Of a DNA stretch of 64,000 bases, positions 59,226 to 64,000 are shown piece after piece. The DNA comes from Candidatus Latescibacterota bacterium (lineage in GTDB: Bacteria > Latescibacterota > UBA2968 > GCA-2709665), in the NCBI GenBank assembly GCA_965222075.1, contig OZ244937.1, forward strand, positions 256,001 through 320,000, given 5' to 3'. The notes below the pieces were generated by a model that worked only from the letters and a program-made list of their open reading frames with translations, was not told where the DNA came from and did no database searches. Each line of letters opens with the position of its first letter. Positions within the stretch are counted from its first letter, which is position 1. Made by a program: the position numbers and the translations under genes.

Positions 59226-61652
59226 ATGAAAAAATGGATTTTTCATCTCACCGCACTAACCGGATTGAATGTTTGCATTTTCGCGTTGCTCTATCTCTTG
59301 TGTGCGGGCGATGCCTCTGCTCAGCAAATCCAGACGCCTGCTCCGCCGAGCATGGACGGTGATTTTCAGACGTGGCATTTGCCCGAAGGTGCCCTCGCCC
59401 GCCTGGGCAAGGGAGCCATTGGTGAAGGCGACCGGGCGGTGGCGCTTTCGTCTGACGGGAAATATCTCGCCGTGGCCAGTGGCGTCGGCGTGTGGCTGTA
59501 CGAGATGGCGACGTCCCGTGCCCTGGCGCTGCTACCCACTGCGAGTCCAGTCTATTCGGTGGCGTTTTCGCGCGGCACCATGCTCGCTTCGGGTTTGGTC
59601 AATGGCAGGATTGAGCTATGGGAGGTCAAAACGGGCACGCGGATTGCCATCTTTGAAGGGCGCAGGTGGGTTCGAGTTACTTCGGTGTTGTTTTCGCCTG
59701 ATGGTGCCACTCTCGTTTCCGGCTCTTATGATGGCGCGGTCAGGCTGTGGGATGTGGCGTCCCGAAAACGCATCGCCACCCTGGAAGGGCATACAGAGCA
59801 GGTCACTTCGGTGTCGTTTTCGCCTGATGGTGCCACTCTGGCTTCCGGGTCGCAGGATAAAGCGGTCAAGCTGTGGGATGTGGCGTCCCGAGAAGAGGTC
59901 GCTACCCTGGAAGGGCACTGGCATTTGGTCAGTTCGGTGTCGTTTTCTCCCGATGGCGACATTGTTGCTTCCGGGTCGTGGGATCGCACGGTCAGGCTGT
60001 GGGATGTGTCGGCCCGCGAAGAGATCACTACCCTGGGGAGGCACAGTTCTATTATCAGTTCGGTGTCGTTTTCGCCTGATGGCGCCACTCTGGCTTCCGG
60101 GGGAAGGGATCACACGGTCAGGCTGTGGGATGTGGCGTCCCGAGAAGAGGTCGCCACCCTGGAGGGGCATACGTATCGCGTCAATTCTGTGGTGTTTTCT
60201 CCTGATGGGACCACTCTCGTTTCCGGGGCAGCGGACGGTATGGTTCTGCTGCGGGATGTGGAGACGGGAAATGTCGCCAGGCTCTCCGGGTATATAAGTG
60301 TCAGCTCGTTGGCGTTTTCTCCCGATGGGACCACTCTGGCTTCCGGCTCTAATGATGAAACGATCAAGCTGTGGGATGTGGCGTCCCGAGAAGAGGTCGC
60401 CACCCTGGAGGGGCATACGTATCACGTCAATTCTGTGGTGTTTTCTCCCGATGGGACCACTTTGGCTTCCGGCTCTGAGGATGAAACGATCAAGCTGTGG
60501 GACGTGGCGGCCCGAGAAGAGGTCGCCACCCTGGAGGGGCATACGTATCGCGTCAATTCTGTGGTGTTTTCTCCCGATGGGACCACTTTGGCTTCCGGCT
60601 CTGAGGATGAAACGATCAAGCTGTGGGATGTGGCGACCCGAAAAGAGATCGCCACCCGGAAAGGGCACTGGTATGGAGTCAATTCTGTGGTGTTTTCTCC
60701 CGATGGGACCACTCTGGCTTCCGGGGGAGGGGATGGCACGGTCAGGCTGTGGGATGTGGCGTCCCGAAAAGAGGTCGCCACGCTGGAGGGGCATAGGAAT
60801 AGGATCAATTCTGTGGTGTTTTCTCCTGATGGGATCACCCTCGCTTCGGGGGGATCGGATCGCACGGTCAGGCTGTGGGACGTGGCGTCCCGAAAAGAGA
60901 TCGCTGCCTTTGAAGGGCATACGGATGAGGCCATTACGTCTGAGGTCAATTCTGTGGTGTTTTCTCGCGACGGGACCACTCTGGTTTCCGGCTCTTATGA
61001 TGGCGCGGTCAGGCTGTGGGATGTGGCGTCCCGAAAAGAGGTCGCCACTCTGGAGGGGCATACGGATGGGGTCATTTCTGTGGTGTTTTTGCCCTATAGG
61101 ACCACTCTGGTTTCCGGCTCTTATGATGGTACGATGTTGTTGTGGGATATGTTGCCGTACATCACCTCATGCACGCCGAGGCCGCCGGTGAAAATCTACG
61201 GCGACAAACAGGAAGGAATGGTCGGAACCGCTTTGGCCAAGCCGTTTGTCGTTTGGGTGTTGGATGAGAAGGGGGCGGCGTTTGAAGGCGTGCCGGTCTC
61301 GTTTGCTGTGACTGCAGGTGGGGGGAGGCTCTCTGTTGAGACCACGGTGACGGATGCGAATGGTCGAGCATCGAGCACGCTGACGCTTGGGAGTGAACCA
61401 GGCACAAACACCGTTGTGGTAAGGGTTGCAGGAACTGAGGAGACGGCGACCTTTGTCGCAGAAACTTTAGCTATGCCCGACTTTGACGGCGATGGTGCGG
61501 TGGGTTTTTCCGACTTTTTGCTGTTTGCCCAGCAGTTCGGGTTACGTCAAGGCGATGCGGGGTATGACGCGCGGTATGATCTGGATGGGGATGGGACCAT
61601 CGGGTTTGGGGATTTTGTGATTTTTGCCAAGGCCTTCGGGAAAGAAGGTTGA
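59226..61652 (+). CDS. secreted WD40-repeat protein with Big_1 and EF-hand/dockerin-like tail
   Basis: Signal peptide; about 14 WD40 repeats; same upstream GGAGCAGGGGCCAATG as 51725. Confidence 0.9.
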
Positions 61653-61662
61653 CCTATCTGCG

Positions 61663-61709
61663 CCTGCCTGTGTTCCTCCCACACGCAGGCCGGGTCTTCG
61701 GCAGGCAGG
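61663..61709. repeat. 47-bp compound micro-element
   Basis: CCTGCCT GTGT TCCTCCC ACAC GC AGGCCGG plus GTCTTCGGCAGGCAGG. Confidence 0.75.
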
Positions 61710-62051: not shown

Positions 62052-62279
62052 CTCCGCAGTGATGATAGGAGAGTAGATCCATGAAACCCCCCGTTCTTTG
62101 TATTGCAGATCGAAAATTTATCGTATTGAACGTGATGTGTGACTTTAAATAGGAGAAAGGAGGTCTTAAGGCTACCTTGTAAGTATCACCAAAACGAGGC
62201 AGCCAACCCCCAACAGGAGGGACCTCCAAATGTATAATTTAGAACTATTCGTCATCGCTGTCTACTGTTTAATTGCCGA

Positions 62280-62312
62280 CCTGCCTGCCGCGCGGTGCTT
62301 GGCGCAGGCAGG
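62280..62312 (+). repeat. 33-bp micro-element, in frame (LPAARCLAQAG)
   Basis: CCTGCCT GCCGCGC GGT GCTTGGC GC AGGCAGG; removal gives ADELY. Confidence 0.9.
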
Positions 62313-62804
62313 TGAGTTGTATCCCAACTTCTGTCAAAGATATGGCCCCCCCCGTCGGGCAGGCTTTTCACCAACCCTGAGTGATGCGGAATGCCTGACG
62401 ATTGAAATCGTTGGACAATTTCTGGGCTATCCCAATCAAAAGCAACTCTTTGAGCGGATGCGTGAGCGCTTCGGCACCTGGTTTCCAGATCTAAAAGAGA
62501 GGGAGGCCTTTGTGCGCCAATCGGCCAATCTTTGGCAGGTCAAAGCCATTTTACACCAGCAGTTGGTGGAAAGGTTAGGTGGCCATCACGCCCCCTGTCA
62601 GATCATTGATACCCTGCCCGTTCCCATCTGTCACCTGGCACGGAGGTGGAGGCGAAAAATCTTCAAAACAGACCCCGTCTTTGATTTTCCAGACCCCACC
62701 AAGGGCTACTGTGCGGCCAAAAAGGAAGCATACTTTGGCTTCAAAGGGGGACTGCGGATCACAAAGGATGGCCTGATTGTTCACGCGCCGCTGTTGCAAG
62801 CCTA

Positions 62805-62837
62805 CCTGCCTGCAGCGCAGGGCACTGCGCAGGCAGG
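62805..62837 (+). repeat. 33-bp micro-element, in frame (LPAAQGTAQAG)
   Basis: CCTGCCT GCAGCGC AGG GCACTGC GC AGGCAGG; removal gives QAYGHD. Confidence 0.9.
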
Positions 62838-62894
62838 TGGTCATGACTCAAAGTGCCGCGACCAACTTCTGGAGGGAGTGCAACCCGATACCTT

Positions 62895-62921
62895 CTTGCC
62901 TGCGCGCAGCGCGCAAGCAGG
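62895..62921 (+). repeat. 27-bp micro-element, in frame (LPARSAQAG)
   Basis: CTTGCCT GCGC GCA GCGC GC AAGCAGG; removal gives TFVLGD. Confidence 0.9.
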
Positions 62922-63095
62922 TGTGTTGGGCGATACCGCTTTTTTGGATCTAAACTGGCAGGAAGCGTGTCAAAAACGCCATCAGGTGCGGGTTTTAACC
63001 CCCATCAAATCCAATATGAAGCCAACCCCACAGCGCAAACCCTTTATACTATCTGGGGTGGGAAAAACCCTGCGACGGTTGATTGAAACCGTCTA

Positions 63096-63122
63096 CCTGC
63101 CTGTGCGTTGCACGCAGACAGG
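63096..63122 (+). repeat. 27-bp micro-element, in frame (LPVRCTQTG)
   Basis: CCTGCCT GTGC GTT GCAC GC AGACAGG; removal gives IETVYAQL. Confidence 0.9.
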
Positions 63123-63223
63123 TGCACAACTGACCCAACGCTTTCAGGTGGCCAGAATGAGGGTGCGCGATGCCTGGCACTTCAGAACCTCTGGACCACC
63201 AAAATCTTAGCGCATACAGTCTG

Positions 63224-63275
63224 CCTGCTTGCCTGTCTGCCTTCGGCACAGGCAGGCGCGCTGCGCGCAGGCAAG
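63224..63275 (-). repeat. two nested micro-elements (27-bp outer, 25-bp inner at 63232-63256)
   Basis: Outer is the exact reverse complement of 62895-62921; removing both gives AHTVCVFLN. Confidence 0.9.
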
Positions 63276-63420
63276 CGTGTTCCTCAATATCCAGCTGCAA
63301 CGAGATCCCTTAGATTTTGAGGGACTCGTCCGATTCTAAAAAAAGTCTCACATGACGTTTGCTTCTACTACAACACAATTGCCCATCAATCGTAACTGAT
63401 TGTGGGCTTGTTCGTTTTAT

Positions 63421-63456
63421 TGTTGCAAACTACAACACGCGTTGTAAATTGCAACA
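63421..63456. promoter_or_regulatory. operator/enhancer-like inverted repeat
   Basis: TGTTGCAAACTACAAC-acgc-GTTGTAAATTGCAACA (14/16 match). Confidence 0.5.
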
Positions 63457-63648
63457 TTTTTCGTTCCCGCCTTACAACTTTTCCTATAACTACATTTATA
63501 AACAGGAAGTTATAAAATTCCTTCCGCATGGACTTGTTCTCCGGAGGGGTTTTTGCGTTGCATTTTGCGACAATTTCCAAAATTCCCGCTGCTCCCATAT
63601 TCTGCCTAACTCGTTCAATGGAAATGAGTTAGGCAGATTTTTGAGATT

Positions 63649-63664
63649 TGGCACACATTTTGCA
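63649..63664 (+). promoter_or_regulatory. sigma-54 -24/-12 promoter consensus
   Basis: TGGCAC-ACATT-TTGCA. Confidence 0.55.
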
Positions 63665-63696
63665 TGTACAGTTGAAAAGATCGTGCCATCCATATC

Positions 63697-63807
63697 CCTG
63701 TCTGCCTGCTTGCCTGTCTGCCTGCTTGCGCGCTGCGCGCAGGCAAGCGTGCAACGCACAGGCAGGCGCGCTACGCGCAGGCAAGCGTGCGGTGACGCAC
63801 AGGCAGG
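63697..63807 (-). repeat. four-level nested micro-element stack (30+27+27+27 = 111 bp)
   Basis: Left arms at 63697, 63705, 63713; intact innermost element 63721-63747; right parts 63748-63766, 63767-63785, 63786-63807. Confidence 0.92.
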
Positions 63808-63973
63808 GATGATGGCCTGTTGGAAAAAGGTCTCATCCCGGGTCTTCCAGACTTTCACCCGAGCCTGATTGATGGCTTCCTGAAGATCGAGGATATCATC
63901 CTGCTTGAAACGATGCAGCAAATCGCCTGCGGTAGAGGGAGCAGGCAACCGTTCAACCTCAAGCGCATCCCTG

Positions 63974-64000
63974 CCTGCCTGCAGCGCGGTACGCCGCGCA
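63974..64000 (+). repeat. micro-element cut by the window end (33-bp class)
   Basis: CCTGCCT GCAGCGC GGT ACGCCGC GC A...; GGCAGG is predicted to follow. Confidence 0.75.

Follow-up and report, generated by a model that had tools for sequence, protein, structure and literature searches.

The SDRs of Nostocaceae, reportedly described by Elhai et al. in 2008 (Genome Res 18:1484), are said to be dispersed hairpin repeats of 21–27 nt that were proposed to be mobile, are inserted in one another and come without a known transposase. They are the nearest precedent for the nesting of such small units. The hairpins described here (hereafter CCTG hairpins) agree with SDRs in size and nesting, compared by description and not by sequence. 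Nostocaceae are the only group in which SDRs were found, and HIP1 may be the insertion site of SDR5 (PMC5861425). CCTG hairpins, in contrast, occur in many phyla and enter at R/Y and G/CG steps (the slash marks the junction).

The REP/REPIN sequences with RAYT are also similar. Like CCTG hairpins, they are imperfect GC-rich palindromes of 20–40 nt with tens to hundreds of copies, vary between relatives, lie sometimes in genes and are clustered, and the active form of both is presumed to be a folded single strand (PMC3733652). The 258 CCTG hairpin elements of the present genome (21–34 nt) are short, imperfect, high-copy palindromes, as REPs are. However, the GTAG/CGTC end tag given for REPs in PMC3733652 is absent from CCTG hairpins, and no cognate Y1 (RAYT) gene flanked by the repeats was found. 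REPs have been described as species- or clade-specific, whereas the CCTG hairpin sequence was found in many phyla and is frequently nested in itself. In PMC3733652, CGTC REPs are stated to 'apparently lack a dedicated transposase'.

IS200/IS605 'peel and paste' elements and their palindrome-associated derivatives share with CCTG hairpins the absence of target duplication, the use of hairpins for recognition and a position beside a short sequence. The derivatives insert 3' of a fixed tetra- or pentanucleotide; the target of CCTG hairpins was a weak consensus. IS200/IS605 elements need a Y1 HUH transposase and, unlike in CCTG hairpins, their left and right ends are separate and tens of bases long. 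Their insertion shows a strong lagging-strand bias. Rickettsia palindromic elements (RPEs) are about 100–150 bp long, and we know of no nesting among them. Like CCTG hairpins, RPEs are palindromic selfish elements that lie in frame in protein-coding genes and are tolerated there (cited in PMC3184786 and PMC3733652), but they are confined to Rickettsia, whereas CCTG hairpins are spread across phyla. MITEs are, like CCTG hairpins, short and non-autonomous, with inverted terminal arms and with both empty and filled sites. CCTG hairpins are several-fold smaller than the MITEs of Table 1 in PMC3184786. No account of the CCTG hairpin family or of cross-phylum nested mini-hairpins was found in the literature searched (main texts). 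By analogy, the family would work like REPs and cyanobacterial SDRs; it had neither the tag and Y1 gene tested for REP/RAYT nor the duplication and parent IS tested for MITEs.

The window is the whole stretch of 64,000 nt that was analysed. It belongs to a genome that consists of a single 5.36-Mb contig with 59% GC. CCTG hairpins are GC-rich; their arms, CCTGYYTG...CAGGCARG, enclose an inner stem-loop that varies. CCTG opens the sequence in all families and CAGG or CAAG closes it, and the stems are conserved while the loops vary. A peeling parser removed the innermost intact element and then checked whether an intact element re-formed around the scar; it covered elements with these arms. The parsed elements were of type C (121), A (60), A2 (42), B (27) and other (8). 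Their length peaked at 27 (84 elements), 30 (23) and 33 nt (103), and 215 of the 258 lengths were divisible by 3. Uninterrupted elements made up 0.12% of the genome. A reversed control pattern had no matches in 41 genomes vs 37 matches of the real pattern in the present genome alone; the element pattern is not chance.

The nest under study is located at 63697–63807 of the window (+ strand, 111 nt) and has the structure A[B[A[B]]] according to parse and fold. On the + strand, the heads CCTGTCTG, CCTGCTTG, CCTGTCTG and CCTGCTTG are followed by four bodies or tails, i.e. the B element body and then the remainders of A, B and A. The outermost A (30 nt, loop CGGTGA) has its head at 63697–63704 and its remainder at 63786–63807. 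Level 2 is a B of 27 nt with the loop CTA (63705–63785; head 63705–63712, remainder 63767–63785), which encloses levels 3 and 4. These form a compound of 54 nt, A(AAC)[B(TGC)], at 63713–63766: an A of 27 nt (head 63713–63720, remainder 63748–63766) holds the innermost B (63721–63747). All parts lie on the + strand. The three junctions are located 8 nt into the parent in the same orientation, and this offset is ambiguous over 7–9, since every insert has C as its first and G as its last base. The predicted fold of the whole nest is a branched hairpin (-45.2 kcal/mol, z -4.25). The four-deep nesting and the alternation of arm types, both claimed in the initial annotation, were borne out with offset 8 and a single orientation. 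It had further claimed that the layers exist intact elsewhere. This was correct for three of the four layers (14, 11 and 3 solo uninterrupted copies elsewhere in the genome), but no uninterrupted copy of the outer B variant with the loop CTA was found elsewhere in the genome.

The last 2.3 kb of the window are the densest element cluster of the genome, with 12 elements. A second nest at 63224–63275 (+) consists of a B (27 nt) that holds an A2 (25 nt, 63232–63256) at offset 8, so the second case placed at 63231/63232 by the earlier reading is present. It is flanked by outer-A remnants (cagtctg at 63217–63223 and cgtg at 63276–63279). Four minus-strand elements lie within the + strand transposase ORF 62230–63210: a solo A of 27 nt in frame (63096–63122), a solo B of 27 nt (62895–62921) and two C-type elements of 33 nt (62805–62837 and 62280–62312). 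This ORF encodes 326 aa, is transposase-like with a weak PF13612 DDE match and reads through the four hairpin elements in frame; those at 62280, 62805, 62895 and 63096 translate as LPAARCLAQAG, LPAAQGTAQAG, LPARSAQAG and LPVRCTQTG. A variant element of 27 nt with the head CCTGCGTG is found at 61663–61689 (-). A C-type element of 33 nt at 63974–64000 (-) runs to 64006, is cut by the window end and shares the minus-strand frame with the nest. As a side observation, a WD40-repeat protein (window 60006–61652) and a large fibronectin-III-like repeat protein (genome 320777–323104) have a common C-terminal dockerin/EF-hand-like DGDG...F.DF motif.

The host frame of the nest is on the minus strand (63499–64000, open to genome 320029). 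It carries an IS1380-like transposase N-terminal fragment up to ...AII/DMDGT and unrelated sequence after it. The 111 nt amount to 37 codons in the frame ...QQAII/37 aa/DMDGT.... A full-length IS1380-like transposase is encoded at ~3.456 Mb; the frame upstream of the nest has 40% identity to its N-terminal region, and this paralogue reads ...VAYIDVDGT... at the matching position. The earlier remark that the 111 bp keep the frame and that their removal gives AIIDMDGT is hence sensible. There was no Pfam match in the host frame, and the sequence past DMDGT was not transposase-like. As judged by its sequence, the host ORF is a degenerate IS1380-like transposase fragment. Because the frame is degenerate, has no Pfam match and is not transposase in its downstream part, the keeping of the frame carries little weight, and the frame at the nest site is thus not under selection.

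The downstream half of the host frame is a three-copy repeat (63301–63696), as found by genome comparison. Its similarity to the copy at genome 488267–488543 stops exactly at the nest insertion point. A run of ~25 C is located beside this 488-kb copy (genome 488630–488660). Next to the nest, the three-copy repeat contains a separate hairpin with an 11-bp stem (ctgcctaactc...gagttaggcag, window 63600–63638), which may lie close to the end of a different mobile element, as a sub-terminal structure; that end would coincide with the site of the nest.

Our preferred reading, with a probability of about 0.6, is that the nest is a pile-up of one family of ultra-small (21–34 nt) non-autonomous mobile hairpins with precise R/Y entry and self-targeting, and that it grew in at least two steps. 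Their entry into DNA is precise, with neither target duplication nor loss. They prefer a purine/pyrimidine step, which inside other elements is nearly always G/CG, and land in one another far above the prediction from sequence preference. The TG/CG at 8 nt in A and B is the place used for B in A or A in B. The nest would have grown within a non-essential degenerate transposase fragment, and for at least its inner pair, arrival as a 54-nt A[B] compound formed beforehand is probable. The reaction would probably take place on folded single-stranded DNA, performed in trans by an enzyme.

Paralogous empty sites were found for 25 of the 224 outermost elements or nests. In these sites the flanks abut, and the inserted ends are exactly CCTG...CAGG, with no duplication and no loss. 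The elements are insertions, or else precise excisions. The target-site duplication of MITEs was accordingly absent at all 25 exact empty sites. In one multi-copy repeat, some copies had a given site empty, whereas in others this site held A2 or A2[B].

A larger multi-copy repeat (~40 copies, e.g. genome 4835817, 3208499 and 863848) contains the sites ...GAAGGGCG/CCGCTC... and ...GCAGGGCAGA/AGCTTCCG...; none was parsed in the window. This repeat is a recurrent hairpin host at two fixed sites, with empty, filled or compound-filled copies. The 12-mers GGCCTTTTTCTT and AAGAAAAAGGCC (52–53 copies each) may belong to it. The genome also has two large CRISPR-like repeat sets, a 37-mer starting with GTTTCAATCCTTGTTCTGG (~90 copies on one strand) and another repeat starting with GCTTCAATGAGGCCGC (~50 copies).

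We checked the flanks of 222 oriented outermost copies. Position -1 was a purine in 88% and position +1 a pyrimidine in 91%. The purine at -1 almost never had an A before it, and the pyrimidine at +1 almost never had a T after it. The two flank bases were complementary above expectation (G/C 72, A/T 59 of the 222 copies). A C/G flank occurred in a single one of the 222, which is the nest at 63697–63807. The rule also applied to 124 copies from other genomes (-1 R in 84%, +1 C in 82%) and, in looser form, to 20 viral-contig copies. A target matrix from the non-nested flanks held ~2.5 bits in total and gave a weak consensus. It ranked offset 8 first in A (score 5.0; genome 99th percentile 4.1) and second in B.

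For the present genome, a general rule of insertion into palindrome centres was rejected: the complementarity of the flanks ended after one base pair, and it was exactly 1 in 51%. Several copies in other genomes were located within the loop of other hairpins, e.g. GTCATTCCGG[..]CGAAAGCCGGAATCC in the stretch L004. There, type A occupies the loop of another hairpin repeat, GTCATTCCGG...CCGGAATGAC (L004:1990-2290, L105, L088, L089 and L010; Thermodesulfobacteriota MAGs). This repeat also occurs in many unrelated bacteria, and it may be another widely shared mini-hairpin family that serves as a target.

In the whole genome, 34 parent–child nestings were found. The offset was 7–9 in 15 of them, and the others were at 9–12, 15–16, 18 and 18–21. 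The 15 nestings at 7–9 were B in A (nine), A in B (two), A2 in B (two) and two in C-type parents; all 13 A/B-type pairs among them combined unlike types. Among the A/A2/B-type pairs with B as parent or child, 13 of 15 had this offset. Nestings of B in A and of A in B use one fixed place. The orientation was the same in 25 nestings, opposite in eight and undecided in one. The other genomes (118 loci, 144 elements) had nine nestings at 9–10, 9–11, 11–13, 18–20, 19–21 and 21–23. Five of these nine were at 9–10 or 9–11, including a three-deep A-in-A stack at 9–10, and none was at 7–9 only. The initial annotation had stated that nesting always occurs at the same offset and in the same orientation. 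Given 15 of 34 nestings at 7–9 in the present genome and none at 7–9 only elsewhere, the word 'always' does not hold, and the eight inverted nestings contradict a single orientation. Offset 9, i.e. the middle of CG, was considered as a site common to the present genome (7–9) and the others (9–10), and was rejected: C/G junctions were nearly unused outside nests (1 of 222).

The 'GC bulge' that had been named as the insertion site was not robust. In the predicted minimum-energy DNA fold, B forms a continuous 10-bp stem without a bulge, and A has a 2-nt bulge on the 3' side; the presence of a bulge depends on the pairing register chosen. A and B both carry TG/CG 8 nt from the 5' end, and 28 of the 34 nest junctions were N/CG. 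The site is better described by sequence (TG/CG) than by structure.

Self-targeting was supported. Nested elements accounted for 34 of 258 (13.2%), whereas uninterrupted elements held 0.24% of the target-matrix weight. This corresponds to a ~55-fold preference for landing in one another; the nestings comprised 30 distinct sequence combinations among 34, are not independent events, and compound copies inflate the counts. With 13.2% nested against 0.24% expected, the flank sequence alone is insufficient, and hairpin structure or the copying of whole compounds must contribute. Of the site-specific, self-targeting integration proposed earlier, the self-targeting and the fixed place for A/B pairs remained, and the universal offset, the universal orientation and the bulge as site did not.

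The 54-mer A(AAC)[B(TGC)] was identical at three loci: in the nest, at genome 1545805 (+) and at 4023658 (-). The flanks of these loci were unrelated. In the relative G019, seven compounds of an A head with B were found, which included all five B copies listed for this genome. Other compounds occurred in G009 and G021, with ten or more copies each. In the present genome, ~14 of ~23 canonical B copies follow an A head, four are in one place in A2 and four are clean solos. The three identical loci and the recurrent compounds in relatives mean that compounds behave as units, and they probably move, or are copied, as such. The alternation in the nest is then explained without a strict rule of taking turns, and the depth of the nest gives no direct reading of how many events took place or in what order.

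Metagenome contigs (not raw reads) from four runs of three studies were aligned to 63300–64000. A joint from 63696 to 63808, which skips the 111 nt, was found in all four runs. A joint from 63711 to 63766, which skips 54 nt, was found in two (X4 and X5). The joints had 18–28 nt on the shorter side with the content between not known, and none of the listed contig pieces spanned the full stretch. The filled junctions were covered by contigs of X1 (record 6, 63774–63840) and X5 (record 22, 63644–63713) with 0–1 differences. Taken together with these limits, the contigs suggest that alleles with zero, two and four levels coexist in natural samples. The earlier proposal to look for reads with fewer or more levels, as run on contigs, hence yielded joints for zero and two levels, but short ones and with no spanning piece. 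Since only contigs were used, neither parts without cover nor missing joints for one or three levels are evidence. A further joint from 63767 to 63973 (205 nt skipped; X4 and X5) was taken as a cross-match between elements and rejected as an allele. A loose contig end in X5 matched the 488-kb copy of the three-copy repeat. One run with a small part of the stretch is labelled as sponge metagenome.

These data bear on the alternative of four separate single integrations, in which every newcomer entered the preceding element at the centre of its CG bulge, with the strict chronology outer A, B, A, B. It would account for three junctions with one offset and orientation, and for layers that each have their own loop and of which three exist solo. 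Moreover, the four clean solo B copies and single B-in-A and A-in-B events (e.g. 553064) provide the single steps. But the inner 54-mer occurs at three loci, A[B] is a recurrent unit in another species, and the lengths skipped at the contig joints are 54 and 111 nt instead of 27 or 81. In addition, B has no bulge in its minimum-energy fold, and the offsets differ for other pairs and genomes. We regard this stepwise stacking as unlikely. The ordered record of four single integrations with the newest element innermost, as it was read from the sequence at the start, is over-read in view of the 54-mer at three loci and the joints that skip 111 and 54 nt.

A three-level nest at genome 553056–553136 showed a mixed composition. 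Its outer element has the A-type head CCTGTCTG and the tail CGTCCCTCGGACAGGCAGG, which otherwise occurs only with the head CCTGCCTG. This is a hint that different element types have recombined or undergone conversion.

Without any transposition, replication slippage or hairpin-templated duplication could have turned a simpler A[B] into the head array (a 16-nt unit twice) and the tail array (a 38-nt unit twice). The heads are indeed a perfect 16-nt tandem repeat, and orphan head arrays without tails at 80088, 4391811 and 4664500 show slippage-type events on such structures. However, two separate arrays would have to expand in a matched way, and the repeated tails are not alike: the A tails differ (loop AAC vs CGGTGA, 27 vs 30 nt), and so do the B tails (TGC vs CTA). 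For the orphan heads, deletion between repeated tails is a simpler explanation; in the preferred reading of mobile hairpins, these heads would be decay products of deletion between repeated ...CAGGCAGG tails. The exact empty sites prove the insertion or excision of whole units. Slippage is very unlikely for these reasons, which agrees with the earlier view that discrete elements were inserted.

The wider family pattern had 0 to 181 copies among 41 relatives (present genome included) and 0 to 140 among 15 relatives of the genus g2. The exact type A pattern was found in 12 of the 41 genomes. The 44 type A copies of G019 share one loop almost without exception, a sign of a burst. The exact 27-base member of the family occurred in at least 118 stretches (one genome per species scanned) from many phyla by record title. 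Among the matches listed, the titles named Thermodesulfobacteriota, Verrucomicrobia, Kiritimatiellae, Latescibacterota, Nitrospirota, Planctomycetota, Acidobacteriota, Anaerolineales, Firmicutes, Spirochaeta, Elusimicrobia, several proteobacterial groups and one Methanosarcinales MAG. The exact 27-mer was also found in 17 viral-contig stretches. Across phyla, the two loops AAC (40 of 124) and GAC (31 of 124) dominated.

Elements were also located within real genes, namely two NtrC-type regulators and several transposase genes with one to four elements each. The frames translated over elements contained no stops. The two regulators are 93%-identical sigma-54 NtrC-type response regulators (genome 498967–500403 and 2829127–2831133; L142 and L143) with hairpin-derived residues in the AAA+ lid–HTH linker, and one of the two paralogues has ~18 extra residues from further elements. 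In the alignment of these regulators, the extra residues fell into a variable linker, which is not a clean empty site with respect to orthologues.

The elements could also be host-functional structures under selection, such as terminators, mRNA stabilisers or binding sites for proteins or topoisomerases, with the nest as a by-product. The conserved stems with varying loops and the dominance of two loops across phyla fit this idea, and REPs have such roles according to PMC3733652 and PMC12306157. But several complete genomes of the same genus have 0–3 copies vs 100–140 in others, and elements are found in dead IS copies and inside coding frames. There was no Rfam match either: the scan of 63000–64000 gave miRNA-like hairpin matches below threshold, at 13–22 bits vs gathering scores of 57–107. 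A host function as the origin of the nest is highly improbable.

An assembly artefact, i.e. a repeat-induced mis-join in a low-complexity palindromic region, is hardly credible: repeats dominate the depth within the nest and none of the listed contig pieces goes across the full stretch, but contigs of independent runs (X1 and X5) cover both filled junctions, the genome is a single contig of 5.36 Mb, and like-built nests occur at many loci and in other genomes.

For the preferred reading, i.e. a pile-up of mobile hairpins, we looked for a mobilising enzyme among Y1, Y2 and IS110 types, partners with the same ends and bracketed genes, and found none among these. The Y1 HUH transposase family PF01797 had two matches in the genome; one of them is intact and IS200-like, and it lies more than 3 kb from any element. 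This single intact IS200-like TnpA (147 aa, HUH and Y motifs, genome 2071937–2072296, L119:1444-1887, -) has its own small flanking hairpins, which are unrelated to the CCTG family. Across 41 genomes, PF01797 did not co-occur with the elements, and it was rejected as the mobiliser: G019 had 101 elements and no match, and G004 and G038 had 32 and 75 matches and 0–1 elements. In this, CCTG hairpins differ from IS200/IS605, since Y1 does not track them. The IS110-type DEDD transposase (PF01548) was rejected with no match in the genome (E <= 1e-8), and Y2 (PF04986) with a broken fragment only. No autonomous partner with the same ends was found, i.e. no parent IS as known for MITEs: the flanks of 511 orphan head-like and 279 tail-like 9-mers formed no multi-copy family except nest fragments. 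There were also no convincing REPtron-like genes bracketed by elements in the genome.

The replication-strand bias was weak (151 of 256), compared with the strong lagging-strand bias of IS200/IS605. A single-strand mechanism tied strictly to the lagging strand would be expected to give a stronger bias. When the bottom strand is read, the target C-M-S-R/ looks like the 3' end of the element itself, CAGG/, as in IS200/IS605, and both sequences put a C four bases before the junction. Type IA topoisomerases are universal and cut 3' of C-N-N-N, which would fit both sequences; one of them may be a candidate for the mobilising enzyme. A broader scenario, which we put forward as a rather doubtful one, is a pan-prokaryotic selfish hairpin of 27–33 nt without its own transposase. 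It would be moved by a universal host enzyme on folded single strands, would cross phyla possibly on phages, and would home into hairpins including itself, so that readable layered insertion records are built.

If truly mobile, hairpins of 27–33 nt would be among the smallest mobile DNAs known. Their unusual traits are the near-identity across many bacterial phyla, one archaeon-titled genome and viral contigs, the lack of a recognisable transposase and the ~55-fold self-preference. The elements add 9–11 codons, stop-free in the frames translated, to real genes such as regulators (in linkers) and transposases. Nests create long branched palindromes that are hard to assemble. As alleles with zero, two and four levels seem to coexist, the nests are possible strain-level markers. 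Finding the mover might uncover a DNA strand-transfer activity that is new, or a universal enzyme put to a new use.
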